This document shows, piece by piece, positions 1-30,532 of a stretch of DNA of 44,687 bases. The position numbers were made by a program, and so were the translations under genes. The stretch comes from Dimargaris cristalligena (lineage: Eukaryota), in assembly GCA_003614675.1 (NCBI GenBank), contig ML002306.1, positions 1-44,687 of the forward strand, written 5' to 3'. The notes under the pieces were generated by a model. It did no database searches, was not told the DNA's origin, and saw only the letters and a list, made by a program, of their open reading frames with translations. Each line of letters opens with the position of its first letter. Positions within the stretch are counted from its first letter, which is position 1.

Positions 1-1042
1 GTATTACTGCTTGAATTGATAAATAATGACGAGTTTACGAATATATCTGGCTAATGATGATATCAAATATAAATGCGAATGATATTTGATGTATTTCTCA
101 CTTGCTATGATATTGCAAGGCTATAAAATAACAAATCAGAATTTCGTTGATAAAAGGATATATGTGATTAATCAGGGAATACTATGGTTAACTAAGTGGT
201 CTCAGGTCCTACCACAACAATGTCAAATTTGGATTCAGATCCTATTCCGTATTGAGAAATCTTTGGTAACCGTTCCATCCTTTAAGGTGATGTTAATTAG
301 GTTTAAACCGCCTATTGCATTATGAATTCGCACCTAATGGGTAAATTTACCAGCTCTATGGTCGAATTTAGTAGGTTTTTTTTATTGTCGCTGTTTGTAT
401 TATTGAATCATTGCTGATTATTAGAATTAGCCATATTTTGCTAATCTTATTTCATATATCAATTTGTATTCAAGTCAAACTAGTGGGTGAACAACAAAAC
501 CCTACTCAGGTGGTATCTGCCTATATTATATTAAAGTTATTTTGGGACACCACAATGTTATTTGAAAACATTATAGGTTTGCGTTTAGGAAATGATGTTT
601 ACAAAAATGTAGGTTGGTTTTTGCGGGAGGTAATATTTATTTCTGCTATACCCTATCTAATTGAAGAATTGTTTATGGCAGGTTCACTAGGCTATTGGTA
701 AAAATGTCCCAATACGCCTAAAGCCGCGGATGCAAGGTGGGGAAAATCTTGGGTGCTCACATGCAAAAGTGGCCGAGAAACCCAGATTAAACAGACGATG
801 GAAGTCGGGGAAGCGGCTATTGCAATAAACGTGTTCGAGGTCAAATAGGTCTCAATATGTTACCTATTATATGGAAAGGTTAGCATAGGTATAGTAGATA
901 GGAAACAAAACCCTGGGGCCCATGTTAGATTACTGTAATTTATCAACCTTGAGGGGTTACTGGGTGTTTGTCGCACCCAGGGTGATTAAATCAGGCTGAT
1001 TAAGTGCCGAGGTCTATTGTACTACTTTTTCCCATCAACTAC

Positions 1043-1364
1043 ACATGTCATGTAAACAACCAACGTAGTGGGGAAGCCATTTGGATAGCCGATAATTTAT
1101 GTGTTTGTGTCAGACATCAGTTTACTGACTACCGCGGTATTTAATCATTGAATTGTATACCCTTGGGCAATATTATCCAACGGCACACCCCAGTTTCATG
1201 ACCCCATTCTATTCGATAAGCCCAATTTCAGTACTAGTTACCCGAGAATTGATGAGAAAGAGAGAGGTAATAGATTAGTAGACCAGGGAATCACCTGTTC
1301 ACACGTATTCAATTTGCCCTGCTTCAAACATAAAATTCACGGTTCCCGTTTAAAGGTATAAATA
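1043..1364 (+). promoter_or_regulatory. Copy 1 promoter: ACATGTCATGT palindrome (1043-1053) and TATAAATA (1357-1364)
   Basis: Motifs and spacing conserved across array units. Confidence 0.65.
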
Positions 1365-1518
1365 TGCACCTACATCCACTCGATTGTTTTCAATAACTAT
1401 TGTTTATAAATACTTGTTATTCGTCAATAGCAATTTCTACGTTATACTTGAATTATTCCACCGACCCCGACCCCAACCCCAATCCTGACCCTGACCCTAC
1501 CGCTACTCAGCCCTAGTC

Positions 1519-1953
1519 ATGCTAGTCCAAACATTAGATGGGGATTGGGAGACTTTGGAAGTTCACGGTAAGTAGCCTTATCTGATAAGCGTCAAACAGC
1601 TGATTCGCGTATCCCATTTTTCACATCCCCCATTTCGACTGTCTTGCATTTACCTGGCCTTCCAGTTGATTAGATTGTTACATGACTATACATCAGCACC
1701 TATACCCCGTTGGAGAATTGTTTTTCAGGAACATTTAAATAACCCATCACTAACCAACGTGTACTTATAAATTTTGTTCTTATTGTGTTTAGCAAATATT
1801 TATTGGACTTTTAGATTCTCAACCTATGTGCTGTACAAAGGCACCGTCACGGACATTCTCGAGGACCAAAACTTGGTGATTATCCAAAATACCCCTATTG
1901 GAAATGTCACCGTGAAGTCCGCGGATATCCTTATCAAACCATGTTCACTTTAA
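1519..1953 (+). CDS. Array micro-protein copy 1, 69 aa; exons 1519-1567, 1793-1953
   Basis: ATG, GTAAGT donor, CACTAAC branch site, TTTAG acceptor, in-frame join: MLVQTLDGDWETLEVHANIYWTFRFSTYVLYKGTVTDILEDQNLVIIQNTPIGNVTVKSADILIKPCSL; gap-free alignment with five paralogs. Confidence 0.88.
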
Positions 1954-4858
1954 TTCAGCTGAAACATATACTATGCCCTATTCCGATTTGGGTTACCATT
2001 AGGCTATTGGCTTGGCCTGCCAACTGGGAGTTAGACCGATTCCGGCCTCAACGAAGTGCATATCTTTCTCATTCAATTTTGGCAATAGTACTGTATTATT
2101 TAGTGTTTAATAATGGCTGTATGGAGATATTTGGCTACTATAATGCCTTGGTTAATACTGGGCAAGTGTTATAGGATCTATGTTTATTGATGGTATTTAT
2201 AATTGAACAACTGTCCAAAAAGACTATCATTATCTCCTGTGGGATTGTATTTAGCTAATATATCCAGTAGTGGGTTAGGGTCTTGTTTGACTATTCTAGG
2301 AAGGATTTGCAGTTATTGTTGTCAGTTATCGTGTGTATGAACACCAAAACTGGGCGCGCGGATAGCCTCATTATTGTATATATGGTGACCAACAGTGAAT
2401 TTGCAGTGCATGGTAACCACACCTTCAGTGTGCCTGGCATGAGAAGCTACAAAACGGCCCTGACATCCTTCCCGGACTGCTTCGATGTCACAATGAAGGG
2501 CCCGAACTTGACAGGCCTGGAGATGCTCTAGGACACAGCTTGAGTAATTTCAGGGGCGCTGGAACTCAAGATGGGCACCAGTTATGATAGTAGGGAACAA
2601 GGAAATTCAATTGCCCAAGTATTTAGAAATACTCGGAAAAATATTAAAGGTTTGATTAAAATGAATAATAGTTTCGAGAAGTTTGAACTTCAATTGATAA
2701 CCGACTCTTGGTTTTCTTTTGCAGGGCCCCAACGTCTTTTTATATTCCTATTCGATTATTATTACTATGTCCATATAAACACAGGACGGGTATAAAGGTA
2801 TTGAAAGTAAGGCTATGGTGAGTAATTTCATTGGTAATATATTAGCGATAAACGAATTGCAATATTTTTAATCATAGGAATCACGTAATAAATGCTATCA
2901 CAATAGACGTTGAAAGGATAAAAGCAAGCTAAAAATAGAGCTAGTGAATGGGCTATAAGCAGGGTGTGGTTTCAACTACTAACAATCAATCACGACATAC
3001 TGGACAATACCACAAATTAATACAAATATGATGGTGCAAAATTACGGAATCCATATAGCCGCTTGGTAAATCCGATGGTCAAAATGGATTCGCCCCCAAT
3101 AGATCTCGTTGTTGTCCCGGTTAACCCCACACTTGGCTTATCAATGGCCCCATAGATGGGTGTTTAATGAGAACCATGACCAGGGGGGCACTTGTCCAGT
3201 GATATCAGCACTTGATAGGTGTGGAAATAGGTATTCAGGACTGGATAACATAGGAATGGTGCTGAGAGCATACTCACTAGAATAAGTAGGTGAGTATATA
3301 GGGGATTCATTAGATAAACAAGGGGAAAAAGTAAGCTGAGTAACGAATGTATCATAACTTGACTAATCATTATATATAGAGTCCATTTGTAGGAAGCACC
3401 TGGGCAGGAATACTGAAGGATACTAATGATTAGGTAAAAAGGTCAGTCAGGGGTGCCAGTATCTGAATGTCACTAACGAAGACAGGGAGAGACTTTGTGA
3501 TCAGACCTGACCAAAGTCAGACATGACAACCTAAAGGGCTATTTAAGAATCCCAATATGAAATTCGTAACTGGGGCTGCTACCTAGTAGGTAACGCTGTG
3601 AGTTCCCAAATCACTATATATACCTCAAACCTGGCTAATTAGCCTTCAGTTTAATAATGTGTAAATAATTCTTTTAGAAATCTATCCACCTAACCTGGTA
3701 TTTCATTGCTGCCATTTCTGTCCTATTTGGAAGCTCGGTTACTTATTAGGACCTACTCGCCTTATATGTTATAATAGGACCATGTTTACTACAACCAATT
3801 TGGGTTTCGAAGACCTCTTTCTGATATTCTATGCGTGTCCAAATCAATGTGACTTTATTATCAGCCCTGTCGGAATACTTATTACTTTATTACCTACACT
3901 TATTTTAGTTTTAGAATCAAGTCGTGGTCAGAAAAAAATATGAATTTTGCTGCCAATTCGCACATTATGTTAATTTTAAATGGAATTAAACCAACAATTG
4001 CACGATGACTTCGCATCCAATAAGCATATTTATCAGCCCCATGGTTAAAGAAATAGTACATTTTCCAGTGTTGTTGATAACAATGCCGAGTCATTGCTGA
4101 TCATCAGAATTCACTATATTTTACCAATGGTGTTCTATATATCAATTCGTATACATTTCTAACTAGTGGATGAATGTCACAACGATAATCAGGTGGATTA
4201 TTGTATATATTTTATCAAGATAATTTAGAAACACTACAATATTATCAGAAAACGCGATAGTACTGCGGTTACAAAATGATGGCCTTTTCCTCCTGCCAGC
4301 CAGCCTATTTACTGACAATCAGGTGCTTTGTAGTCGCTACTAACTTAGGCCCCCCAACTTCAATTCTATAAATGGGTAATGGAGAAACTATTGGTGTTTA
4401 CTATCATGTAGATTAGTTTTTTTGTAATGTTAAATTTATTCCTGTTATGTTCCAACTTTTTGTGGAATGGTTATAGGCGGATTAAATTGTCCACTGGTCA
4501 TAATGGCCCAATTGGCCTAGAACTCCGTAGGCAGGGTGAGTTAAATACCAAGTGTTCGCAAACAAAAGTGACCAAGGTACTCAAATTTAACAGATAATAG
4601 AAGTCGGGAATGACTCTTATAATAAATCCGTTTGGGGGTAAATGGTTGTCAGTATGTTACTTGTTATATGGAAAGTCGGTAACTAGGAGTGGATTTCCCT
4701 GGTGCCTGGCGAGATCGCAACTTGAACCCTGATCGTCCAACGTTTGCATGTTCTGAGGGATACTGATAAAGAAAAGCTCGAGGCGGTGGTGTGGGTAACC
4801 AATACATTCGGGCAGCCTTACGGTAATAGGTTGTTAGGAAAAGTTGGCATCGGTATAA

Positions 4859-5000
4859 TATGGATGGGATTCGGACCAGCCGTATAAGCTTTTAAACGAT
4901 ACGCAAATGGGGAAATGGGAGGGTGATTCGTTGTTGGCCAATAGTAGTTGCCTCATCCAACGGATTTTATGTTATATAATCTGGTTGAACCTCTCCCATA
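4859..5000. mobile_element. ~140-bp MITE-like insertion with imperfect ~29-bp terminal inverted repeats
   Basis: Absent at this position in other units; ends tatggatgggattcggaccagccgtataa / ttatataatctggttgaacctctcccata; related copy at 11682-11822. Confidence 0.65.
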
Positions 5001-5142
5001 TATAGGAAACACTATATTGGTGCCTGAGTTTAGTGTAATTTATCAACTTTGTGGGATTACGGGGTATTTGTTTCACCCCAGACGATTCAATCGAGCGGGT
5101 TAAATGGCAGTGTCTACTGGGCAAATGTTGTCCATCAACTAC

Positions 5143-5464
5143 ACATGGCATGTAAACAGCTAACGTAGCGGGGAACCGATTGGAGCGGTAAGTGATTGAC
5201 GCGCTAGTTTAGAAAATTATGCGTCTGACTGCGTGATGTTCAATCACTATATTTTATCACCTTAGGCAGTCCTAATTAGCGGGAAATCACAATTAAATAC
5301 CGCTGTTCTATTTGAAAATCTCAATTTCGACACTAATCACTCGGGAATCAATGAACGTAAGGGAGGCAGAGAATTAGTAGATCGGGAACTTTCAGGTCGC
5401 ACATAACCTTTTATCCCTACTGTAATTATTTAGGTTTTATGGTTCCCTCTCAAAAGTATAAATA
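5143..5464 (+). promoter_or_regulatory. Copy 2 promoter: ACATGGCATGT (5143-5153) and TATAAATA (5457-5464)
   Basis: Same motifs, 314-bp spacing. Confidence 0.65.
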
Positions 5465-5615
5465 TGCCCTTCCATCCACTCATCTGTTTTTGACAATTAC
5501 CGTCTCAAACAACTAGCTGTTCACTATTAGCAACCTCAGAACCAGCCTTGGTTTATTCCTACGACCTTAACCCCCCCCCCCTCCCTCCCCCCCCCGCCGC
5601 CAATCAACCTTAACC

Positions 5616-6048
5616 ATGTTCATTCAAACATTCGACGGAGTTTGGAAGGATGTGGAATTGAACTGTAAGTAACTAGATCCAATAAACGCCAAATAGTCGA
5701 TTCGCACATCCCATATTCCATATCTCCTTATTGCCTCTCTTACATTGGCCTAGCCTTCGGGCAGATCAGATAGTTATATAGCTATTCATCGGCGCCTGTA
5801 CCCCGTTGCTGAATAATTTTCAAAAACACTTAAATAACCCATCGCTAATTAACACGGATTTCCCAAAACTATTCTTATTTTGTTTAGCGAGGATTTACTG
5901 GGCCTTTAAAACGACACCTAACAGAGTATACGAAGGCACGGTCACGGTCTTTATGGAGGAACAAAGCAAATTGGTTATCGACGATTTCGTTCTCGGAGAG
6001 GTCAGCATGTATTATGATGCTATCTATTTCAGACCCTGTTCACTTTGA
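5616..6048 (+). CDS. Array micro-protein copy 2, 69 aa; exons 5616-5664, 5888-6048
   Basis: GTAAGT..TTTAG intron; MFIQTFDGVWKDVELNSRIYWAFKTTPNRVYEGTVTVFMEEQSKLVIDDFVLGEVSMYYDAIYFRPCSL; AATAAA at 6144. Confidence 0.88.
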
Positions 6049-6353
6049 TTCGGCTGAAACATATACAATGCCCTATTCCGGTCAGCATTCTGTGAGGCGA
6101 TTGGCTTGACCCGTCAATTGGGAATTTTTTTGACTACGACTTCAATAAAGTACATGTTTTTTTCGTTCAATTTCGGCAATAGTGATGCGATAGCTGGTGT
6201 TTAAAAATGACTATACAAAAGTTTGGCTATTGTAAAACATTGGTTATGATCAGTCAAGTATTACGGCTTCTGTATCAGTGGATGGTAGTAAGACCCGACC
6301 AATTGCAAACATTGGCCATCATTGGTACCTGTGGGCTTATATTTGGATGATAT

Positions 6354-6613
6354 TGTTAGAATGATAAATTCAATGGTAAACGCAAGTGCCTTCGAATACA
6401 ACTGAAATAATTTAAAGAAGAGAAAAAGAACCGCAAGGAGCAGAGCTAGATGCCTGCAGTTAGTTTTATTGAGATGGATAACAGTAGTAATCAAGATTAG
6501 GACGAAGTCCCAAGTATAGAATAATATAGTAATAGCTAGAATATAGTCCCGAGTTGAGGACGAGCCAATCAGAGAGATGGGATCGGTGGTCGGGGGGAAA
6601 TGAATTTCCAACA
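6354..6613 (-). mobile_element. Solo LTR (260 bp) with 5-bp target-site duplication GATAT
   Basis: TGTTAGAA...TTCCAACA termini, GATAT on both sides (6349-6353, 6614-6618), interrupts the conserved 3' flank of copy 2; reverse-complement homolog at 8617-8837. Strand inferred from AATAAA orientation. Confidence 0.8.
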
Positions 6614-7353
6614 GATATAGCTAGTGATGATTTAAGGCGTTTTTGGAATATTCAGGTACTTGTGAGTATTGTTGTTGGGTTTCAGATGAATGTTCACCAA
6701 ACCAATCTTGGATGTAACCTCAGTTGATGTAAATAGAGACTAGCGGGTATTCGATATAAATCAGATGATACCAAATTTCAGGATCTGCATAGCAGGTAAA
6801 TTACTCCCAAGAACAAAATGTATCGAACTCCCATGCCTATTTTCTACCTCTTTTCAATCCCCAAGGTGCTACTTAGGTTTTTATCTGATAATTATATTTT
6901 GGTGGGTCATGAACTCCCCTATTGATATCAGGTCACGGGAAATATTGGTCGTGATTATCCGGGTAGTTGGATCATATGATAGTGGATGTATTCGCTGGTA
7001 AATAGCCATCGGTCTGTTACTTATTATTTGGAAAGGAGTCAGCATGGAGTTGGGTTCTCTAGTGCATGGCAAATCCGCAAGTTGAACCCTAGTTATTCAA
7101 TGGCTAAATGTTGTGAGTGTTACTGATAGGGAATAGCTCGAGGCGGTGGTGTGGGCAACCAATTTATCGGATCAGACTTACGGAAATAGCTATATTGGAA
7201 AAGTTGGTGTCGGTATAATAAATAGGAAACAGTATTCAGTGTATCTAGTTAGTTTAGCATAATTTATCAATTTCATGGGATTAGAGGATGTTTGGTGCAC
7301 CCCGAGTGATTAAATAACAGGATCTTCTGGACCACATTTTGCCTATCAACTAC

Positions 7354-7675
7354 ACGTGGCATGTAAACGACTAACGTAGCGGGGAAATGATTAGGGTGGT
7401 AGGTGATCGATGTGCTAGTGCCAAACGTCAAACAATCGGCTGCTGTGGAATCCAATCATTATTTTATCGACTTAGGCGGTCTTATCCAGCGGATAACCCT
7501 TGTATAATACTACTATTCCATTCATAAGACCCATTTTCGACATAAATCACTCAGGAATTGACGAGAAAAATAGAGGCAATGGATTAGTAGACCAGGGAAT
7601 CAACTGTCCACACTGAATCAATTTGCCCTTCTGATCTAATTTCAGGCATACGGTTCCCTTCCAAAAGTATAAATA
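7354..7675 (+). promoter_or_regulatory. Copy 3 promoter: ACGTGGCATGT (7354-7364) and TATAAATA (7668-7675)
   Basis: One mismatch in the palindrome, 314-bp spacing. Confidence 0.62.
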
Positions 7676-7808
7676 TTCCACATTATCTTTTCGACTTTCA
7701 ATAATTGCCGTCTCTAATAGTTGGCTATTCGCCATTAGTAATTTCTACACCCGACTTGTATTAATCCGCCGACCTTGTCACCCCCCCCCACCGCTACTCA
7801 ACCTCGAC

Positions 7809-8252
7809 ATGCTAGTGCAAACATTCAAAGGGGATTTTGTGGCTTTGGTAATGCACGGTGAGTAATTTGATATACTCTAAACCCATTATCCGACTCGCAC
7901 ATCCCATATTCCACATTCAACCCATTCATCTATTATACTCTCTCAACCTTTCGATTGTTTAGATAGTACTCTGGCCATTCATTAGTGTCTATAATCTGAC
8001 GCTGAATTAATTCTAGGGACACATAAATTACTCGCCACTTATTCACGCGGAATGTTTAATTATTGCTCTTATTTTTATTTAGAAGTGATCTATTTCGCCT
8101 TTAAATCTTTTCCCAAAATGATACACAAAGGCAGTGTCGCGAAAATTGACGAGTACTCAGATGTTGTGACCATCGAAGGTACCGCTCTAGGAACCTACCA
8201 CGCGAAGGCCACAGATATATATGTCAAAACCTCCCGCAATTTATTAAGATAA
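7809..8252 (+). CDS. Array micro-protein copy 3, 72 aa; exons 7809-7857, 8083-8252
   Basis: GTGAGT..TTTAG intron; MLVQTFKGDFVALVMHEVIYFAFKSFPKMIHKGSVAKIDEYSDVVTIEGTALGTYHAKATDIYVKTSRNLLR; AATAAA at 8339. Confidence 0.88.
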
Positions 8253-8616
8253 AATATGTAATGTACCTTATTCCGATTGGTATGCCAGTACGCGACCCGC
8301 TTGATCGGTGAATTTCTAGAAAGCCTGACTCCGGCTTTAATAAAGAATTTATTTGTGTATATATATAATTTCGACAAAAGTGGTGTAATAGTTAGTGGTT
8401 GAATATAGTTATATGACGAAATGTGGCTATTGTAAAACCCTCGTTAAGATCAGGCAGGTGTTTCAATTGTGTTTATTAAGGGTAGTTTTATTAAAAAAAT
8501 TGTCCACAACAGCTATCATTGTATTTTGTGGGATTATATTTGGCTGGTGTAACTGGCAGTGGTCTGAGATGATATTGAGATATTTAAGGGTTTGCGGGAG
8601 TCGTTGTTGAAAATTA

Positions 8617-8837
8617 TGTTGGAAATTCATTTCCCCCGTCCCACTGACTCCATCTCTCTAATTGGTTTGTCCTGTACTCGGGACTTCGTTTTTGTCACTA
8701 TTACTCCTATTATCCAACTCAATAAAGTCAACCACGGGCATCTAGATCTGTCCTTTGCGGTTCTTTCTCTCTTCTTTAAATCATTTTAGTTGCATCTGAA
8801 GGCACTTGCATTTACCATTCAATTTATTATTCCAACA
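8617..8837 (+). mobile_element. Solo LTR (221 bp), same family as 6354-6613 in opposite orientation
   Basis: Perfect 8-bp inverted termini TGTTGGAA/TTCCAACA, internal AATAAA ~8721; flanks AATTA/CAATA are not a clean TSD. Confidence 0.72.
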
Positions 8838-9281
8838 CAATATTCATCCCCCCAGTAAGCCAAGCTATTATCACACTTTTTCTGGCCGTGGCTGTAATAA
8901 ATGGGTTCACGGGTTTATTGGTCTCAGTATGTTATCTATTATATATAAAAGTGGCAACTAGGAGGTACGTCCTCTGGTGCCTAGAAAGTCCACATTTTGA
9001 GCCCTGATCAATCAGTTGTGAAATGTTGTGAGGGTTACCGATAAGCAAAGGCTCGAGACGGTAGGATGAGCAGCCAATACATTGGGTTGGCCTTACAGAA
9101 ATGGGTTTATTGAAAATGTTGGTGTTAGTATAGTAAATAGGGGTCACTATATTGGGGCATAAGTCAGTTAAGTATAATTTATCAGCTTCATTGGATTAGA
9201 AAATGTTTGGTGCACCCCGGGTGATTAAATCAAGCTGATTAAATGACAGGGCCTCTTAGTCTACTGTTGCCCATCAACTAC

Positions 9282-9603
9282 ACATGACATGTAAGCAGTT
9301 AACGTAGTGGGGAGCCGATTAGGTTGGTAGGTGATTGACGCGCTAGTCTCAAAAATGATGTGTCTGACTGTGTGACGTTCAACTACGGTATTTTATTTCC
9401 TTAGGCGGACTTATCCGCCAGATAACCCTGGTTTAATACCACTATTACATTTATAAGACCCAACTTCGACACTAATCACTCGGGAATTGATGAAAGTAAG
9501 AGAGACGCTGGATTAGTAGATCAGGAACTTTCATGTCGCACATAATCATTTATCCCTACTGTAGTCGTATAGTTTTTATGGTTCCCTTTCAAAAGTATAA
9601 ATA
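9282..9603 (+). promoter_or_regulatory. Copy 4 promoter: ACATGACATGT (9282-9292) and TATAAATA (9596-9603)
   Basis: Same motifs, 314-bp spacing. Confidence 0.65.
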
Positions 9604-9741
9604 TACATTTTGATCCATTCATCTGGTTTCGACAATTACTATATCCAATCACTAGCTATTGACCGTTAGCAACTTCTGCGCCACACTTGATTTATTCCGC
9701 CGACCTTAACCCCCCCCCCCCACCGCTAATCTACCCTAGCT

Positions 9742-10183
9742 ATGATCATTCAAACATTCGAAGGAGATTACACGACTTTGATATTGAACAGTAAGTAACT
9801 AGATCAGGTAAACTCCAGATAGTCGATTCGCATATTTTATAATTCAAATTTCCCTGCTGCCTCTCTTACAGTTCCCTAATCTTCAAATTGATCAGAAAGT
9901 TATATATATATATTCACCAGTGCCTATATCCTGTTGCTGTATAGTTTGCAGGATAACTTAAAGAAACTGCCCCTAATTAATACGGACTTCACAATATTGT
10001 TCTTTTTTTCTTTTAGCAAGGGTTGTTTGGGCCTTTAAATCGTGTCCCAGAATTACAAGCGAAGGCATTGTCAAGGAAATTAGGGAGAGCCAATATACAT
10101 TTCTTATCGACGATGTCGAAGATGGAGAAATCCTCTTGACTTTCGATACTATCTACGTTACACCCTACTTACATTTTAATTAG
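9742..10183 (+). CDS. Array micro-protein copy 4, 71 aa; exons 9742-9790, 10017-10183
   Basis: GTAAGT..TTTAG intron; MIIQTFEGDYTTLILNTRVVWAFKSCPRITSEGIVKEIRESQYTFLIDDVEDGEILLTFDTIYVTPYLHFN. Confidence 0.88.
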
Positions 10184-10680
10184 GCCTAGACATGTAATAT
10201 GCCATATCCCGGTTGGCATACCAGTAGGCAGCACAATTCACCCGTGAATTGCTAGTAAATCTGACTCCGGCTTCAATACAGTGTATATTTTGTTTCATTT
10301 AATTTTGGCAATAGCAATGCAGTAGTTGGTGTTTAAAAATGGCCATATGGCAAAATGTAGCTCTTGTAAAACCCTTGTTAAGATCAGGCAAGTGTTACGA
10401 TTTCTGTAATTATGAATAGTATTTATATTCAAACCATTATCACCTATGGTATTATATTTGGTCAATATAGCTGAAGGTGTCTTTGTTAGAAATTGCATGA
10501 TCTATCATGATTCTCTTTTAGCTCTTGTAAGCAGTATTTTATTCACCCTATTATAGCCACGTCCCCTTCATTCTTATGGGTGTGTCCTCTACTAAGAAAA
10601 AAAACAACTCAACCGGAGTTGTTGTTTTCATTTTGTGGCTTTCTTCTTTATTCATTACTATTTCTACTAATGATTATATC

Positions 10681-11400
10681 TTTATTCAATAAAGCTTATG
10701 GCTTGTCACCTGGGTTAACTGCTCTTAGTCTGTCAAGAATCCCAGAGGTAGGCTTCTAATGGTAGATGGAGCCTAGATATGGCTAAGCAGGTCTTAGTAT
10801 TAGGTTGGGGCATGGTACTAACTAATAAAAGCTATGAATGCAGGTATAAGCAAGGGACATGCAGTAAGCACACTTACTAGTCAAATACAAGGGGGTTAAA
10901 TATATATAGAGTTTATTGGGATAAACTAAGGGGGGAAGAATAAGCTGAGGAGTTAAATCAGTCCCAGTGGGGCCTGGTTATATATATGCAGGGATGGCTC
11001 CAGAGGGAGGTCCCAAGGGAAATACTACTAAGACTAAGGTATAGGCAGATAAAGAGTCCGACCAGACAGCTTCACATTGGGAAGACTCTTATGAGAATAG
11101 GAAAAGTCTTGGATCCACAAGTTGAGTGTTTGGGGTGTAAAGCACTGGGGTTGGAATGAGTAGGGGTATATAATAAATGATGACCCATAGTACCAGGGGT
11201 GACTATGGGAAGGTTAATAGGGTACTATAAGGCCTAATAAGGATGGGTAATCATTAGGTCTGGATTAAGTCAGATTAGGAGTGCTGATAGCTAGAAGATA
11301 CTACTCAGAGATATAATGAATGATAACTCATAATAGATGAGTAAAAAGAATATGATATGTAAAAAAGACAAATCAAGTGGTGGTGGATGGCTAATGGTAT
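10681..11400. mobile_element. CpG-depleted degenerate repeat/TE relic
   Basis: One CpG counted in 720 bp; partial similarity to ~3260-3420; not part of the array unit; no domain recognised. Confidence 0.4.
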
Positions 11401-11681
11401 GTGACCCTTCAATAAGGCGGAATTCCCACATCTTGTTGGTAAAACTAGGTGATTATGGTGCCTAGTCCTTCATGAATAGTCAGCTTTACCCCTGTTGATT
11501 ATGAAGCATGACAGTTATTGATAATATATGGATCAAGATGATGGTGTGGGCAATAAATATATTGGATTGGTCTTACGGATATGGCTTTATTGGAAAAATT
11601 AGCATCAGTATAAAAGATAGGTGCCACTATATTGGGAACTAAGTTAGCTTGGCACAATTTATCAATTTCGTGGGATTAGAA

Positions 11682-11822
11682 TGTGGGTGAAATTCGGCCC
11701 AGCTGTATAAGGGTTTAAATGATAAGTGTATGGGATAATATATGGGAGATTTATTTTTATCCAGTATTTTTACTTCATTTAACGGACTTTTCGTTATACA
11801 GCTCAGCTGAACCTCTCCCATA
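11682..11822. mobile_element. ~140-bp MITE-like insertion, second copy
   Basis: Ends tgtgggtgaaattcggcccagctgtataa / ttatacagctcagctgaacctctcccata are imperfect inverted repeats; inserted at a different site of the unit than the copy at 4859. Confidence 0.65.
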
Positions 11823-11886
11823 TGTTTAATGCTCCCTAAGCGATTAAATAATGGCGCCTATTAGACGAATGCTTCCCATCAACTAC

Positions 11887-12211
11887 ACATGTCATGTAAA
11901 CAGCTAACGTAGCGGGGAACCGGTTAGGGTGGTAGATGATCGATGTACTAGTGCCAAGAATTACACATCTTACTACGCATCATTCAATCATTGTAATCTA
12001 TCACCTTAGGTAATCTTATCCAGCGGAAAATCCCAATTTAATACCGCTATTCTATTCGGAAAACCCAACTTCGACACTAATCACTCGGAAATTGATGGAG
12101 AAAAAAGCAAGTCAGTGGGTTAGGACACCAGGAAACTTTCAGTTCGCACTGACTCGATCAGCCCTGCTGATATAAACTGAGGTATATGGTTCCCTTTCAA
12201 AATTATAAATA
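11887..12211 (+). promoter_or_regulatory. Copy 5 promoter: ACATGTCATGT (11887-11897) and TATAAATA (12204-12211)
   Basis: Same motifs, 317-bp spacing. Confidence 0.65.
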
Positions 12212-12350
12212 TTACACATTATCCATTCGACTGTCTTCAACAATTACCGTCTCTAACCACTAACTATTCGCCATTAGTAATTTCTACACCCGACTTGAAT
12301 TCCTACGTCGTCCTTGACCCCCCCCTCCCCACAGCTACTCGAGCCTAGAC

Positions 12351-12784
12351 ATGATAGCCGAAACATTTAACAGGGATTTGGTGACTTTGGAAATGTACGG
12401 TGAGTAATCAGACTATCCCTAAACCCATTAGGCGATTCGCCCTTCCCATATTTGATATCCAACGTCTCCCTCTCTTATATTATACTAACCTTTCAATCGA
12501 TTTGTTAGTAACATGGCCATTCATCATCGCCTATATCCTGACACTGGATAGGTTCTAGGAACACTTAAGTTACTCGTTACTTATTAACGCGGATCTTTTA
12601 ATGATTATTATTATTTTGATTAGAGTTGGTTGATTTCGCCTTTAAAGCTTATCCCAATAAGATATACCAAGGTAGTGTCGCGAAACTCGACGAGTACGAA
12701 GGTGTGGTGACTTTCCAAGGAACTTCAATGGGAACCTTCCGCGTGATGGCTAAAGATATATATATCAGACCCTTCGTCAACTGA
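12351..12784 (+). CDS. Array micro-protein copy 5, 69 aa; exons 12351-12399, 12624-12784
   Basis: GTGAGT..ATTAG intron; MIAETFNRDLVTLEMYELVDFAFKAYPNKIYQGSVAKLDEYEGVVTFQGTSMGTFRVMAKDIYIRPFVN; AATAAA at 12880. Confidence 0.88.
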
Positions 12785-14989
12785 GCCAGATAAAATCTAT
12801 AATATACCTTATTCTGATTGGTATACCAGTAGGCGACTCACTTGGACCACGAATTGCTAGTAAGCCCAATTCTGGCTTTAATAAATTACTTTTTTTTAAA
12901 ATTTACGTTGTGTCTAATAACCAACAATATTAAAGCCGACTAAACACGAAGAACCAGGCAACATCGTTGCCCAGTTCCATCAACGAGCCGCGGGAATTTG
13001 GCCTTATTGAAGGTTCACCTTTCTTCAGCTATGCATCACCACTCGATTCATCTATTCTATATATTCTATCATTTATACATGTCTACAATTATCTAACATT
13101 CATATTAATATTCAGTAGCGTCTTCCAGCAACCTCCATGCTTGTTCGACATCTATATCAGTCTTCTCGACTATATAAAACCGGGCTAATTCCTACAGCCG
13201 TTCATTAGTTAATTAGCATATAGTTCTATACCCTTTTCAATAATGAACTCAACCTATTTAGTATCTCCTGTATTGTATTCTATCAAACGCCCTTCGCATC
13301 AGCTGCTCATGTGTTATGTCTCATAACTCGTTCTAGGCGTAGGTGCTTGAGACATTATCTGGATTATTATGTACGACAAAGAGTAAAACTTGAATATAAG
13401 CCTCTCGCATCTCATCTTTACTTGCACCTGCGTTTACATCTTAAATTGTCGTCCTTGGAATAGGCACATGTTTACTATAACTGCCTTGAGGTTCTAATAA
13501 CTCATTGTTTTTATCACATTATCGTCTCCACCCGTGGGGCTTTATTTTCAGCCTCGCCGGAGTAGTAACAAAATTGCTGCACATGATTTCTTCGGGTTTG
13601 GAATTAAACTATAGTAAGAAAGACGGAGTCTTTTGCAGCCATGGCACCTTTTCAGATGATTATAATCAGGATTCAACCAACGATTGCGATATAATCTTAC
13701 ATATGCATCAGCTCCTTGCTGGAAGTTGATGTGGATTTTATTTTGTCGTGGTTGGCAATGGAAAATCATTACTGATTATCAGAATAAACCATACTTTTCT
13801 GATGTTATTTTATACGTCAATTAGCGTTCAAGTCAAGCTAGTGGGTAAATTCCAGAATAATACTAATACCGTCCTTGTCAGTATTATTTAAATGCTGTTT
13901 ATATACATTATAACACTATCTAAAAATACTATAGTTTTATATGTAGGAAATTTTACAGTTTTCCTCCTGCTAGAATATATAAATTTACCGACCATTAGGT
14001 ACTTCGTGATAGCTACAAAACTCCCCCCCCCCCGCAAACTCCAATTTTATAAATAAGTAATGGAGGATGAATTGCTTATTACTATAATGCAGGTCGGATC
14101 TTGTGCGATATTATATTTATTATTGCAATGCCCCATCTGTTTGTGAAATAGTTAAAATCGGACTAAAAAGACAGCTGGTCATAATGCCCTAATTTACATA
14201 AAAATCTATAGGAATAATGAGGAAAGAACCAGAGGTTCACAAACTAAAGTGATCATGGTGCTCACATTTAACAGATGTCAATATCCGAAGGGTGATTATT
14301 ACAATAAGTCTGGCTGTGGGTAAATAGTACTCGGTGTGTTACGTGTTTTTTTAGAAAAATGGCAACTAGGAATGGGGTTCTCCAATGCCCGACGAGTCTG
14401 CAACAATAACCCTAATCATCCAACGTCTGAATGGTGTAAGTGTTTCTGATGGGGAGTAGACCAAGATGGTGATGTGGGCAACCAGTATATCGGATCAGTC
14501 TTACGGAAATGGGTTTATCGGAAAAATTGGCATCGGTTTTGGCGATGGAAATCACTATATTGGAGTCCAAGTTAATTCAGTGTAATCTATCAACTTCATC
14601 GGATTAGAAGTTGTTTGGTTCACCCCAGATGATATAATAACAGGGCCTATTGGACGACCGCTGTCCATCAACTAAGTGACATACCAACACCTAGCATAGA
14701 GGGAAAACGATAAGTGTAGCTGATAATTTATGGATTATTGTTAAACATTCAATTAATGACTACTGTGACATTCAATCATTTTATTTTATCAACCTTGACA
14801 GTAATATCTAGCGGAACCCGCCAATGCAATGCCGCATTTCTATTTAAAAATCTCAATTTCGACACTAATCACTCGGGACTTGATGAAAGTAAAAGAAACA
14901 GCGGATTAGGAGATCAGGAACCTTCAGGTCGCACAGAATCTTCTTGCCATACTGTAATGATTTAGGTTTTATAGCCCCCCTTTCAAATG

Positions 14990-14997
14990 TATAAATA
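14990..14997 (+). promoter_or_regulatory. Copy 6 TATA box (upstream palindrome degenerate at ~14675)
   Basis: TATAAATA at the homologous position, 139 bp before the ATG. Confidence 0.6.
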
Positions 14998-15128
14998 TTA
15001 CACATTATCCATTCGACTGTCTTCAACAATTTCCGTCTCAAACAACTAGCTATTTGCCATTAGCAATTTCTGTACCGGACTTGATATATTCCGCTGACCT
15101 TAGCTCCCGCCGCCAATCAACCCTAGCC

Positions 15129-15574
15129 ATGAAAGTTGAACTATTCGAGGACGGTTACGCGATTTTGGAATTGCACGGTGAGTAACCTAGGTTCGGTAAA
15201 CGCCAAATAGTCGATTCGCACACCCCATGGTTTACATCCCCCTTTTGCCTCTCTTACATTTATCTAGCCTTCGGATTGATAAGATAGTTATATAGCTATT
15301 CATAAGCGCCCATATCCCAACCCTGAATAACTTCTAGGGGCACCTAGATTACTTACCACTTATTAACACGGCTTTTATGTATTTACTGTTCTTATTTTGA
15401 TTAGAGCTGTATTATTTTGTCTTTAAATCTTCTCCCGATACGATTTACAAAGGTAGCATCGCAAACATTGACGAGGACGAGGAGCTAGTGACTTTTGAAG
15501 GTACCGTGGTAGGAACTATCTGCGCGAAAGCCGAAGATATATATGTCAATCCCTGCCCCAAATTATTCAGCTGA
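15129..15574 (+). CDS. Array micro-protein copy 6, 72 aa; exons 15129-15177, 15405-15574
   Basis: GTGAGT..ATTAG intron; MKVELFEDGYAILELHELYYFVFKSSPDTIYKGSIANIDEDEELVTFEGTVVGTICAKAEDIYVNPCPKLFS; AATAAA at 15661. Confidence 0.88.
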
Positions 15575-16790
15575 ATTATATGCTATACCTTGTTCCGATT
15601 GGTATACCAGTAGACGGCTCACTTTGTCCGTGAATTGCTAGTAGGCCTGACACCGGTTTTAATAAAGTGTTTTTTTTATTTAATTTCGGCAATAGTGATG
15701 TAGTAACTGGTGTTTAAATATGGCCATATGGCAAAATTTGGCTATTGTGAAGCCCTGGTTAAAATCAGGCAAGTGTTACAATTTTTTATATTTTTGAATG
15801 GTATTTATATTCGAACCGTTGTTGACTGGAGCCATCGTTGTCACCTATGGGATTATATTAAGCCAATATAGCCAATGGTGGCTTGCGGAGTTATTAGACT
15901 ATTTCAATGGTTTGTAGGTATTGTTGGCGAGTATCATGCGGATAGCCGCCAAAGCTGAACTTGGGGATAGCCTCGTTATTGTATAGATGGTGACTAACGG
16001 GAAATCGATGTAAATCAGATGATATCAAATTCCAGGATATGCATAGTAGGTAGATAAATCCGACGAACAAAAGATATTCGCTTCCAATACCAATTACCCA
16101 CCCATATCCAAACCTCAATGGGCTATTTAGGTGTCTGACTGTTACCCAATCAATGGTATTGTTCAATTACTAAGTCAATATTGGCACATTCACTACCCTA
16201 ATATACGTATTACTTTACCAGCTATTGTCGGGGGCATTATATCGATACAGATTGCTTCCCCAACTTCAAGGTGGCAGTACTATTTTATCACCATGGCACC
16301 CAAAACAAGCGACGCGGCATTGTGCCTTAAAGGGAAAGAGACTCGAAGTAGGGAAATCTTCAAGGTATATTTACTATTGTTTCCACTTGTGGTGGAGCCT
16401 GAACGGAGAGACAATGCAATTGCCCATTGGACTATTGTTAAGTGGCGAAGTGTGGATACCAAAGCCCTAATCCATAATTTTTCAGCGATTCCCCGCTCCC
16501 GAACCAAGGAATTGGAAACCGTCATCGCCAAACCTATACAGCTAGGAATGGTCAACTGTATATAAAAGACACTGGCAAGTCCTTTTACCATTATATTGCC
16601 AATGAATTTGCTTTAGTAGCCGCTTTTTCCATATTCTCATATTTCCGCCATTCCATCAATTCCCTGGTTTGGTCAATACCACAGTGCTGCCCACTGATCC
16701 TCACGCTCAGCCAATTATCAATTTATTTTACTATCCGTTGACTGTCTCAGTGAATTCCATCGTGTTTTTCACCCACTCCATTCCTGAGCC

Positions 16791-17561
16791 ATGCTTTATT
16801 CGTCCTTTTCGGTCTTGACCTTGGCCGTGACTCTGGTAGTGTTTACTGCTTCCCCTGGATTCACCCACCCGGTCCAGACCACCTCCATCTACGGGAACGA
16901 CCAACCCATTCCACACCCAACTCCTGGGGACAAAACCCTACCCACCGTCACCACCATTAGTACCGGCACTCTTCCGTCACCCTCGGGCACCAGCACCGCC
17001 ACTACCAAGAAAGTATTTGTGCAGTACAGTGTCTTTGAAAGTACATATGCCGCCACCGACTCAGTTGGTATATCTCTGTGTTCCGATGCATCCAATAGTG
17101 CAATAAGAGTAAAGTCCGATTTCGCCAAGGACCTCGTCACAACGGGAGCGGGCTACACCCTTGCAGGGACGTGGCTGACCATTGAGCAAGGCCCAAGCAC
17201 CCAGTACCCCCACGGTTGCTTCGCCGTCACCCGGGGTCCGCTGGGCGAGAGTGGGGCGGTTCTGAACCCCTTTGTAAGCGCGTTTGGTCACGATTACGCG
17301 ATTGGCGACACCCTACTGGTTGCTGCTATAGTGGGCTTAGCACTGGGTAATGGCCAAACCCACAATGGCTGTTTGAAAATCGAAGGGAAAGGCACCGAGC
17401 CGGGTAACCTGACCATCTATATTTATAGTCCAAAGTACCAGTTCCTATTCACCAAATTTAACGGGGGACCCGCCAAAGGGGTCAGGAAGGCCCAGTGTAC
17501 TCCGGGTAACTACATGACTGTCGCGCCCAGCAAGAACATTGCCACCGCACCCGCCCACTAA
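16791..17561 (+). CDS. Secreted protein, 256 aa, Thr/Pro-rich linker plus 3D (MltA-like double-psi barrel)-like domain
   Basis: Hydrophobic N-terminal signal peptide; GPLG-x4-LNPFVS..D...G..L.V..I.G..L.NG.THNGC pattern recalls fungal 3D-domain proteins. Domain call is by recognition only. Confidence 0.75.
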   Translation: MLYSSFSVLTLAVTLVVFTASPGFTHPVQTTSIYGNDQPIPHPTPGDKTLPTVTTISTGTLPSPSGTSTATTKKVFVQYSVFESTYAATDSVGISLCSDASNSAIRVKSDFAKDLVTTGAGYTLAGTWLTIEQGPSTQYPHGCFAVTRGPLGESGAVLNPFVSAFGHDYAIGDTLLVAAIVGLALGNGQTHNGCLKIEGKGTEPGNLTIYIYSPKYQFLFTKFNGGPAKGVRKAQCTPGNYMTVAPSKNIATAPAH

Positions 17562-27455: not shown

Positions 27456-28682
27456 TTGGGCTCTGCAACCCTCTGTCTCTCCCTATCTCTCTCTTTTTTT
27501 CATTAGTTTTCAGCAGAGCGTAGATGGGGAAGTGATTTGTTTCCTCCTAATTCATATTGATAGTTTTTATTTTTTTGGCATCCGGGTCCGTCGTGAGGAG
27601 AGCTCGGCTCTTCGCTAAAGCACTCCCCGGTGCACTCGTCCCTAATACCTAATCTTAGTCACCCTCATTATCCCGTATTTTTTGTAAAGGAACACCTGGT
27701 AGATAATGTTACTGACTTTAAATACACCACTGTTACTTTGAGTGTTTGAAATCCACGTTTGATTTCGGCCTTTAGCTTAGGCTTTGTTGTGAGATTTCTG
27801 AATCATTTCAATCAATTGCACTATATAAATATACCATACCCCAGATTCAATCGGCAGGAATATCAAGGCAGTATACTATTCAGTGCCGAGCTATTGCTCA
27901 AACGACACAACCAGTCTCATACAGGTTCAATGGGAAAGGGGAGTAATATATATTACATGGGAAATGCTATAAAACCTGCCTCGTGACATTGGGAAGTTGC
28001 TCCAATAAGATTCAACCCAAATTGAGTGTGCTCCAATCACTCCAATCGTTTTATACCACAACGCCCCGGCTAAGATGTCTGGAATACGAATAGAGAGACT
28101 TCTACCCCTCCCCCCCATTCACCCCAATTTTTTTTTCATTTGCACCACAATGCACTGAGGAGGGACTCTGAAGCAAGGCAATCAATTGACGCTACACATT
28201 ACAAACCAGGGCCATCTAGAAGCCATTGCCCCAAGGGCTACTGTTGCCAAAGACGATATAATTAAACAAGCCAGCATTGTTTGTTGTTTGAAATTGATCC
28301 GAGCCTATCTCCCCGTCTCTCTTACCATATATATATATATATAAGAATTACATCATAGACACCAATCAAAGGATCTAACCAGACCCCTTGTACCAAGCTA
28401 ATTGAAAACCAAAGCGTATATAAATAAATAAATTCCAGAAGCACTGGGTCGCATTTATTGCTTTGACGCACAAAGGAAGGGAGTGAGAGAGATGGATAGA
28501 TAGAGAGAGTGAGACGCACAACTAACCGTTGGTTTTATTCTAGAAAATAGGAAAAATAGTGGCTGGCACAGCAGCCGTGGGTGGAATTACACCACGCGCG
28601 CACACCAACGGCATCCCCAGGTGTTTGTTCAGTGGGGGAACACTATGTAAAAGGGTGGAGAGATAAGAGTCACCCTATACCT

Positions 28683-30532
28683 TTACACGAAGGTCTTGAC
28701 GAAGTCGTTCAGGACCTGGCGGAGCTTCTTCTCGAGGTCCTCAGAGACCTTACCCTCGGTGCGGATGGCATCCAGGATGTCCTTGTGGTTGGAGACCATG
28801 TGGGGGATCAGGGCAGCTTCGAACTCGACGATGCGGTTCACGTCGATCTTGTCGAGGAAACCGTTGACACCAGCGAAGATGATCACGACCTGGTTCTCCA
28901 CAGACATGGGAGAGTACTGAGGCTGCTTGAGCAGCTCAGTCAGACGGGCACCACGGTTCAGAAGGAACTGGGTGGAGGCGTCCAAGTCGGAACCGAACTG
29001 GGCGAAGGCAGCGACTTCACGGTACTGAGCCAGGAACAGCTTCAGGGAACCGGCGACCTGCTTCATGGCCTTGGTCTGGGCAGCGGAACCCACACGGGAC
29101 ACGGAGATACCGACGTTAATGGCGGGACGGATACCCTTGAAGAACAGCTCAGCTTCCAAGAAAATCTGACCGTCAGTAATGGAAATCACGTTGGTGGGAA
29201 TGTAGGCGGACACATCACCACCCTGGGTCTCAATGATGGGCAGGGCGGTCAGAGAACCGCTACCGAAGTCCTTGTTCATCTTGGCGGCACGCTCGAGCAG
29301 ACGGGAGTGAAGGTAGAACACATCACCGGGATAGGCCTCACGACCGGGGGGACGACGCAGAAGCAGAGACATCTGACGGTAGGCCACGGCCTGCTTGGAC
29401 AGATCATCGTAGATGATCAGACCGTGCTTGCCGTTGTCACGGAAGTACTCACCCATGGCACAGCCGGAGTAGGGGGCGATGTACTGCAGAGGGGCGGCAT
29501 CGGAGGCGGTAGCGGCCACGATAATGGTGTACTTCAAGGCGTCGTATTCCTCGAGGGTCTTGACGAACTGGGCGACGGTGGAACGCTTCTGGCCAATGGC
29601 GACGTACACACAGTACAGCTTCTTGCTCTCGTCCTGACCGTCGTTCCACTTCTTCTGGTTCAGAATGGTGTCGAGGGCAACGGAGGTCTTACCGGTCTGA
29701 CGATCACCAATAATCAACTCACGCTGGCCACGACCAATGGGCAACATAGAGTCGACGGACTTGATACCGGTCTGCATTGGCTCGTGCACGGACTGACGGG
29801 GGATAATACCGGGGGCCTTGACCTGGACACGCTGGCGGGAGCTGGCCTGGATAGGACCTTTGCCATCGATGGGGTTACCGAGGGCATCGACCACACGGCC
29901 GAGCAGACCGGCACCGGTGGGGACATCCACAATGGAACCGGTACGCTTGACGGTATCGCCTTCCTTGATCAGACGATCGTTACCGAACACGACAATACCG
30001 ACGTTGTCGGCTTCCAAGTTCAGGGCCATACCCTGGACACCGCTGGAGAATTCCACCATCTCTTCGGCCTGGACGTTCTTGAGACCGTAGACACGGGCAA
30101 TACCGTCACCGACGGACAGGACACGACCGGTCTCCTGGATGTCGGCGGCGTTGGACAGACCAAGAATGCGCTCCTCCAGAATGGAGGACACCTCGGAGGC
30201 AGCGGGCTTGGCGGCAGCGGACTGCACGGAAGCGGTGGAGAAGGCACGGCTCATGGCACCGACGGCGGCGACAGAGGGGCGGACCTGGAAAGGGTGTGAC
30301 AAGAGTTGGAGGGATACAAAAGTGGATCGATTAGTATATCAGCCCTTCAGGGAATAGGAGGGATAGGGTTGGCCAGTTGAGCGGTCCACCCAACTGTTTG
30401 GAGCTAAGTTTGGATAGGCGCCACTCCAATAGGGGAACAGAGTTGTGGCACTCGGGCACAATTAAATAAAATAGTACTTACGGCCAGGGGGGCCTTAGTC
30501 TTAAGGCTCAGGCGAGCAGCGTTTCTAAGCAT
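28683..30532 (-). CDS. ATP1: Mitochondrial F1 ATP synthase alpha subunit, ~550 aa; exons 30532-30482, 30284-28683
   Basis: GDRQTGKT Walker [30 protein letters not shown]; exon 1 [17 protein letters not shown] is a targeting peptide followed by a GTAAGT donor. Confidence 0.97.

Follow-up and report, generated by a model that had tools for sequence, protein, structure and literature searches.

Six predicted intron-split genes in tandem in Dimargaris cristalligena: a reading frame under selection and a predicted barrel fold

In the fungus Dimargaris cristalligena, one contig of 44,687 nucleotides (nt) (ML002306.1 of the GenBank assembly GCA_003614675.1, positions 1 to 44,687 of the forward strand, hereafter the window) opens with 16 kb of head-to-tail repeat units, in which six small two-exon genes are predicted, all on the same strand. 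Selection keeps one and the same reading frame of these genes open despite heavy divergence among the copies, and the coding sequence diverges at a rate equal to or above that of the non-coding DNA around it. The part of each product that is encoded by exon 2 is predicted to fold into a five-strand SH3-like barrel. The reading that we favour, and hold to be probable, is an array of protein-coding paralogues, at least six in number, whose barrel-shaped products would serve as small binding modules. The genes were pointed out in an earlier note on this DNA, made from its letters alone. What that note took them to be, namely intact genes missed by gene calling, with a selected frame and without recognisable relatives, stood up to the analysis, and two things are added here: a known type of barrel as the predicted fold, and a coding sequence that changes faster than its own promoter and intron.

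Gene models and the reading frame

The six genes were rebuilt from the sequence, and every checked detail of their earlier description, including their positions, their common strand and their intactness, was reproduced. Each has a TATA box, a first exon of 49 nt, a phase-1 GT-AG intron of 223-227 nt and a second exon that closes a product of 69-72 amino acids (aa). Gene 1 is predicted to consist of exon 1 at 1519-1567 (16 codons, beginning with the ATG, and 1 nt), a phase-1 intron of 225 nt at 1568-1792 and exon 2, here and below with its stop codon, at 1793-1953, for a product of 69 aa. For gene 2, the predicted positions are 5616-5664 (exon 1), 5665-5887 (intron, 223 nt) and 5888-6048 (exon 2, 69 aa), and for gene 3 they are 7809-7857, 7858-8082 (225 nt, with an in-frame alternative acceptor 3 nt downstream) and 8083-8252 (72 aa). 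In the same order, gene 4 would occupy 9742-9790, 9791-10016 (226 nt) and 10017-10183 (71 aa), gene 5 would occupy 12351-12399, 12400-12623 (224 nt) and 12624-12784 (69 aa), and gene 6 would occupy 15129-15177, 15178-15404 (227 nt) and 15405-15574 (72 aa).

The splice signals agree closely among the copies. All six introns have the donor GTRAGTA and an acceptor TAG behind a pyrimidine run, and 38-41 nt 5' of every acceptor there is a branch-like site (CTAAC, CTAAT or CTTAT). As read from the donor sequences, retention of the intron would lead to a stop within three codons in every copy. An AATAAA stands 87-96 nt 3' of the stop codon in four of the six. The default listing of open reading frames (ORFs) contains two exon-2 fragments of the family (5806-6048 and 8052-8252) and nothing else of it, in agreement with what had been said of the ORF track; in other words, gene calling that is based on ORFs misses these genes.

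The predicted products are proteins of about 8 kDa with 0-2 cysteines each. Five of them are acidic, with an isoelectric point (pI) of 4.2-4.85, and the product of copy 3 has a pI of 9.0. Alignment of the six proteins confirmed that M1, F23, G33, E40, G53 and I62, and exactly these, are invariant. The further claim that the proteins align without gaps holds through residue 66, after which the second exons differ in length in their last few codons. The absence of a signal peptide was borne out by eye: all six N-termini have acidic residues within the first 12 positions and no long hydrophobic run, and thus are not signal-peptide-like. Also by eye, the N-terminal segment has an alternating hydrophobic pattern and not one typical of a helix.

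Several independent features of the alignment bear on the question of whether the frame is selected. Within its first 68 codons, frame +1 is free of stops in all six copies, and any other frame of the same stretch has between 1 and 9 of them in each copy. In neutral simulations, a reversible model was run along the coding tree, each run starting from one real copy, with the base composition of the coding sequence and the transition bias of the non-coding parts; all five of the remaining copies were still open at the end of 4 of 24,000 runs, and a mean of 0.26-0.71 of the five remained so. When the units are aligned over 3.9 kb, exon 2 is the sole stretch on either strand that is open for at least 45 codons in all six copies. 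Exon 1 (49 columns) contains no alignment gap, and exon 2 contains none before the last few codons; the gap runs, summed over the rows, number 32 in the 232 columns of the intron, 34 in 528 columns upstream and 27 in 319 columns downstream. The replacements are also conservative in this one frame, with a mean BLOSUM62 score of mismatches of -0.27 in frame +1 and of -1.07 to -1.37 in the other five at equal identity. Finally, third codon positions have a GC content (GC3) of 0.44-0.54, higher than the 0.37 of the intron. These observations show that selection keeps frame +1 open despite heavy divergence, which is what the earlier note had claimed and what the stop counts, the simulations and the sole six-copy open stretch uphold. 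That the six are real coding genes is, on these sequence patterns, well supported.

The divergence itself is unusual in its distribution. The mean pairwise p-distance is 0.301 in the 528 nt upstream, 0.327 in exon 1, 0.331 in the intron, 0.368 downstream and 0.421 in exon 2. Column identity gives a similar order, with 0.61-0.74 in the promoter, 0.62-0.68 in the intron and 0.55-0.62 in exon 2, and in the exon-2 alignment the peptides of the other copies are 21-37% identical to that of copy 1. By the method of Nei and Gojobori, the nonsynonymous distance (dN) is 0.57, the synonymous distance (dS) is 0.56 and the non-coding distance is 0.43. The ratio dN/dS is 1.01, with a bootstrap range of 0.72-1.43, and is not significantly above 1; within the subfamilies {1}, {2,4} and {3,5,6} it is 0.70 (0.40-1.14). 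The ratio of dN to the non-coding distance is 1.33 (1.07-1.65) overall and 1.46 (1.17-1.84) between the subfamilies, the flanks being an imperfect neutral yardstick that may be constrained or homogenised. Change in the coding sequence is thus at least as rapid as in the non-coding DNA on either side. Taken alone, these rates would point to neutral change; taken together, the rates and the frame statistics fit purifying selection on a structural core with fast change elsewhere.

The ratio of transitions to transversions (ts/tv) is 1.24-1.39 in the non-coding parts, as against 0.75-0.79 in the exons. Repeat-induced point mutation was considered as a source of the AT-richness of the array and rejected, the non-coding ts/tv being only 1.24-1.39.

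Different parts of a unit do not always have the same history. In the tree of the upstream regions, copy 6 groups with copies 2 and 4 (support 92), and in the trees of the intron and of the coding sequence its partners (support 89 and 100, respectively) are copies 3 and 5. Because the upstream tree and the intron and coding trees disagree for unit 6, exchange between units is indicated, and unequal exchange or gene conversion is suggested. The downstream region of unit 4 likewise groups with those of units 3, 5 and 6 (support 91). Unit 6 has the appearance of a mosaic, in which 14626-15128 (upstream) and 15129-15574 (gene) differ in affiliation.

In each gene, a promoter region of about 500 nt is conserved; it includes a TATA box and a leader that is rich in C and poor in G. 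A TATA box had been claimed for every gene and was found in all six, TATAAATAT lying 139-162 nt 5' of the ATG; the 10-mer GTATAAATAT occurs five times in the window, each time within one of these units. On the forward strand, the boxes are at 1356-1365 (gene 1), 5456-5465 (gene 2), 7667-7676 (gene 3), 9595-9604 (gene 4), 12203-12212 (gene 5, where the first base is T and not G) and 14989-14998 (gene 6). From the TATA box to the start codon, all six copies are free of ATG in every frame, and each has a purine at -3. The ATG-free leader says little, however, because the leaders contain only 9-12% G and 26-44% of the shuffles of each leader also lack an ATG. About 470 nt 5' of the ATG, a motif of 27 nt is found in five of the six units (five matches in the window against none expected); it is degraded in unit 6 and absent elsewhere in the window. 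Its positions, all on the forward strand, are 1049-1075 in unit 1, 5149-5175 in unit 2, 7360-7386 in unit 3, 9288-9314 in unit 4 (with three mismatches) and 11893-11919 in unit 5. We regard the motif as a candidate for a shared regulatory site, and the shared TATA-type promoter would turn on the paralogues together.

The predicted fold and the search for relatives

Fold prediction and sequence searches were made with the unaltered translations of exon 2 (52-55 aa, aligned in six rows). With the six-paralogue alignment, AlphaFold2 gave a five-strand barrel at a mean predicted local distance difference test (pLDDT) score of 94.6. A structure search independent of Foldseek, which covered 48,161 chains, and a second examination of the Foldseek list together gave matches with Z-scores of 5.0-6.2 and a root-mean-square deviation (rmsd) of 1.4-2.4 A over 44-51 of the 52 residues. 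The match with the lowest rmsd, from the Foldseek list, is the LSm domain of LSm14 in complex with a 4E-T peptide (6f9w; Z 6.2, 1.4 A over 48 residues), and close to it are the LSm domain of Tral (2vxe; Z 6.0, 1.7 A over 50 residues), SmF (1n9r; Z 6.0, 1.9 A over 50 residues), the Tudor domain of RDM15 (Z 5.9) and 2vc8 (Z 5.5). Among the 50 matches listed by the Foldseek-independent search, 30 have titles that name Sm, LSm, Hfq, small nuclear ribonucleoprotein (snRNP) or Edc3/Scd6, 8 are spliceosome, SMN or NatC assemblies in which the matching chain was left unchecked, and 12 are other folds of a similar overall shape. The best PDB rows of Foldseek were the PHF1 Tudor domain (template modelling (TM) score 0.59, rmsd 3.2 A, E 0.079), Gemin6/7, the LSm domain of EDC3, the C-terminal domain of HIV integrase and the KOW domain of Spt5. 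The exon-2 part is therefore predicted to be a five-strand SH3-like barrel of the Sm/LSm/Tudor type, a description of shape that does not imply membership of any of these families. A prediction of a two-copy complex of the exon-2 part of gene 1 scored 0.22 against a mark of 0.32 and, having been run without controls, counts neither way.

At the level of sequence the family has no recognisable relatives, a statement whose scope, here and throughout, is predicted proteins and metagenome contigs. None of the six copies reaches the cut-off of any Pfam family, and four of them have no row at all. Weak echoes, in one copy each, are Tudor_FRX1 (E 0.041, 14.3 bits against a cut-off of 25.9) and LSM14 (E 0.082, 13.4 bits against a cut-off of 30), in the same direction as the predicted fold; the Pfam LSM model matches none of the six copies even at E up to 10. 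The best PDB profile match is FXR1 (3kuf) at E 0.48, none being significant. NCBIfam gave rows at the level of chance (best E 0.019, in one of the six copies), PADLOC gave no match, and the best score in the ESM Atlas, 0.75, is under the level of a lead.

Larger collections gave the same picture. Among 5.8 billion protein clusters, a word-based search found three candidates of nearly the same length, none of which scored, and at longer lengths 5081 candidates, again with none that scored. Another protein of the same contig is contained in that collection, and because it is present there, the six genes appear simply not to have been called in it. Two profile matches among 1.84 billion representatives (E 3.1e-4 and 3.5e-4) were rejected: they are repetitive proteins of 588 and 250 aa, which align in three and five short stretches, respectively, and were judged to be non-relatives. 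In metagenomes, a 24-nt promoter pattern had no matches, and a scan with a single protein matched 592 patterns, none of which was confirmed. The earlier note had not recognised the family, and its judgement holds in Pfam and in the protein collections and metagenomes searched. That note had also raised the possibility that the units are pieces of a known transposon; Pfam detected no transposase or reverse-transcriptase domain in the ten longest ORFs of the array. On these sequence criteria, the array represents a new, lineage-restricted gene family in which a known type of fold, as predicted, is put to unusual use.

Possible functions and competing explanations

How the products might act can be considered by analogy with known barrels of the same shape. 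The LSm domains of LSm14/Scd6/Tral and of EDC3 give the best structural superpositions for the array proteins, with no significant match in sequence. According to the passages of PMC3877753 on EDC3's and LSm14's divergent LSm domains, these are monomeric and do not bind RNA, their N-terminal helix is lost or shortened, and they grip short helical motifs of their partners on strands 2 and 5. In LSm14 and EDC3, the LSm domain is the N-terminal part of long, single-copy, conserved proteins with FDF motifs, whereas the array proteins are predicted to be free-standing, of 8 kDa, in tandem and with a dN/dS near 1. The predicted barrel also resembles the SH3-like barrel of Tudor and Agenet domains (PHF1, FMRP/FXR1, RDM15), no match being significant; Tudor domains are modules within large chromatin or RNA-binding proteins.

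In the reading that we favour, the products would act as free-standing binding modules, in which the hydrophobic core would be constant and the exposed positions that it supports, in strands and loops, would vary among the paralogues. Their mode of action would resemble that of the monomeric LSm domains of EDC3 and LSm14 on short helical motifs. The array would grow by tandem duplication together with some exchange between units. The function as small binding modules is a reasoned guess by analogy.

A number of observations weigh against an array of protein-coding genes with barrel-shaped products. The gene models and their splicing are predictions from the DNA alone. Conservation is lower in the coding sequence than in the promoter and the intron, and differences at the three codon positions (0.447, 0.364 and 0.377) show no excess at the third; together with a dN/dS near 1, this pattern is what non-coding sequence would show. 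GC3, at 0.44-0.54, is far below the 0.61-0.74 of the neighbouring genes. With no relative in any collection searched, conservation is known from this array alone. As for the fold, the model covers the exon-2 part and not the first 17 residues, and exon 2 of copy 4 folded alone gave a pLDDT of 43.5; because of this result, the confidence of the model must come from the pattern common to the paralogues. All Z-scores are at or below 6.2, tied within 1 of each other and below the caution line of Z 8, so that the matches may reflect just a common arrangement of strands, and the query-normalised TM scores of Foldseek are about 0.55-0.67, all with E of at least 0.079.

One alternative keeps the genes as coding and gives them another role, as effectors without a leader or as toxin-immunity proteins, which would act between the parasite and a mucoralean host or in distinguishing self from non-self, would be delivered with no classical signal peptide and would have diversified in an arms race. 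The variable recognition, immunity or effector repertoire and the unconventional secretion that the earlier note put forward would be compatible with fast replacement. Dimargaritales are haustorial parasites of other moulds, and the nearest named relatives of a neighbouring Nuc1-type nuclease belong to Dimargaris and Dispira, both mycoparasites. The location of the tandem array in DNA that is poor in genes and rich in AT, next to housekeeping genes of high GC, the restriction of the family to one lineage, the diversified coding parts behind conserved promoters and the ratio of dN to the non-coding distance (1.33 [1.07-1.65], and 1.46 between subfamilies) all agree with this view. The array is also like the clustered fungal effectors of the MAX and RNase-like types in being composed of clustered paralogues in gene-poor DNA, with a common fold, low identity and fast replacement. 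However, MAX and RNase-like effector families have signal peptides and often disulfides, and the array proteins, with their 0-2 cysteines and N-termini that by eye are not signal-peptide-like, have neither. Moreover, dN/dS is not significantly above 1, and exchange between units may homogenise the flanks and thereby inflate the ratio of dN to the non-coding distance. A full-text literature search found no fungal effector with an Sm-like fold, and a broader search on effectors likewise gave no relevant case by title or abstract. We consider the effector or immunity role unlikely.

A more specific version, to which we give rather less credence, is that this early-diverging haustorial mycoparasite has a private, fast-diversifying set of free-standing barrels like those of LSm14 and EDC3. 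As leaderless decoys, these would grip short helical motifs, either in the machinery of mRNA decapping and translation repression or in other partners, and would do so in the fungus or in its host. If it were true, an Sm-fold domain would for the first time be seen to serve as a variable repertoire of effectors or immunity proteins.

The likeness to Sm proteins could also be taken at face value, with the paralogues forming homo- or hetero-oligomeric rings that bind RNA. Canonical Sm, LSm and Hfq chains have in common with the array proteins a size of about 70 aa (69-72 aa here) and, as predicted, the bent five-strand barrel. Sm, LSm and Hfq rings have 6-7 subunits, and the number of paralogues is near to that. 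On the other hand, the array proteins are unlike canonical Sm, LSm and Hfq proteins in that the Pfam LSM model matches none of the six, even at E up to 10, and in that five of the six are acidic (pI 4.2-4.85). No Asn or Arg-Gly is invariant in the exon-2 alignment, and, with the correspondence to the Sm motif placed by eye and not computed, none seems to be conserved at the Sm RNA-binding positions. A dN/dS near 1 would be unexpected for proteins with set places in a ring, and Sm genes are not known to be organised as tandem arrays. An RNA-binding ring is for these reasons very unlikely.

It is slightly harder still to believe that the selected element is the transcript, the intron or regulatory DNA, and that the open frame is a by-product. 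The promoter and the intron are indeed better conserved than exon 2 in column identity, dN/dS is about 1 and the 27-nt upstream motif is kept in five of the six units. However, a frame that is a by-product would have acquired stops (it was spared them in 4 of 24,000 simulations), would not have conservative replacements in one frame only and would not yield a confident barrel model, and Rfam had no match in positions 1-17000 at E up to 1. Least credible, and disfavoured, is a decaying relic, be it a defunct tandem repeat or a fragment of a mobile element, whose frames are open by chance: its composition would be like that of the array (GC 0.36-0.42, as in non-coding DNA) and it might well be without relatives, but the stops, the simulations and the sole open stretch speak against chance, none of the ten longest ORFs of the array has a Pfam match (and so no transposase or reverse-transcriptase domain), all six copies are in head-to-tail order at a single locus and the rest of the window has none, no terminal repeats surround the units save for one inverted 260-nt segment in two spacers, and a ts/tv of 1.24-1.39 is without the transition excess that repeat-induced point mutation would leave.

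If the favoured array of coding genes for small binding modules is expressed, the Dimargaritales, whose parasitism has to our knowledge hardly been studied at the molecular level, would gain a lineage-specific, co-regulated and rapidly diversifying protein family. The Sm/Tudor-type barrel would at the same time gain an unusual use, as a stand-alone, multi-copy and variable module. Two points are of more general interest. First, intron-split micro-genes can wholly escape gene calling, as illustrated by the fact that none of the six products is found in 5.8 billion clusters. Second, the array is a clean example of a frame that is demonstrably selected in spite of a dN/dS of 1 and of exons that are less conserved than their flanks.

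Layout of the array and its neighbourhood

Spacings from one unit to the next are 4097, 2193, 1933, 2609 and 2778 nt. A profile search for copy number, which the earlier note had proposed, was run on the window: with a profile of the best-conserved 1.3 kb, nhmmer found exactly six copies and no further one in the rest of the window. When a profile of the exon-2 peptides was compared with the six-frame translation of the window, it recovered the same six copies only. The conserved cores delimited by the 1.3-kb profile, each with promoter, gene and 3' flank on the forward strand, are at 988-2261 (unit 1), 5088-6353 (unit 2), 7307-8549 (unit 3), 9227-10468 (unit 4), 11842-13098 (unit 5) and 14626-15869 (unit 6). 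Across the 4.1 kb that separate genes 1 and 2, the profile searches found no degenerate copy or pseudogene. Tandem Repeats Finder gave no rows for the array, the units being too long and too divergent for that program.

The spacers between the cores are also related to one another, although they are rich in insertions and deletions. The start of the window is inside such a spacer, and 378-513 resembles 4061-4196 and 13736-13871. Because the window opens inside a related spacer, the array may extend past the left end of the contig, and the assembly may have broken within the repeat. A segment of about 260 nt at 6354-6613, just 3' of unit 2, recurs in inverted orientation at 8617-8837, just 3' of unit 3; the two sites are 80-84% identical, and the segment occurs nowhere else in the window. 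A small inversion would account for it, as would a short mobile insert present in the two spacers.

The GC content is 36-42% across the first 16 kb and about 45-61% in the gene-rich remainder. The shift from the array to the region of housekeeping genes is sharp, at about 16000-17000, and the intergenic GC of the gene-rich part dips to about 41-44%, near the composition of the array.

The other genes of the contig include those for dynactin p62, a GH16 glycosidase, a Nuc1-type endonuclease, mitochondrial ribosomal protein L21, a WD40 protein and a KLRAQ coiled-coil protein. The nearest named relatives of the Nuc1-type endonuclease are those of Dimargaris xerosporica (69% identity) and D. verticillata (68% identity), in both cases over most of the query. 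The match in Dispira simplex has 67% identity but covers only 4% of the query, and a nuclease of Coemansia brasiliensis is higher in score (528 bits) at 50% identity. By these neighbouring-gene matches, the organism belongs in or close to the Dimargaritales. The Dimargaritales, which belong to the Kickxellomycotina, are described as mycoparasites in a genome paper on the latter group (PMC9866270), whose main text gave no passage on introns or tandem genes.

Four long open frames with gene-like GC have no Pfam match at E up to 0.001: 257 aa at 16788-17561, 579 aa at 28560-30299, 457 aa at 37848-39221 on the reverse strand and 249 aa at 41676-42425. The 579-aa frame is overlapped on the opposite strand by a frame of 551 aa at 28683-30338. 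Among the neighbouring genes, five candidate junctions of long introns were seen, and Pfam gave no support for the upstream pieces. Two unconfirmed candidate introns with GTAAGT donors, 34823-35011 (189 nt) and 42414-42741 (328 nt), would join open frames. If these neighbouring introns are real, introns of about 200-300 nt would be usual in this genome.

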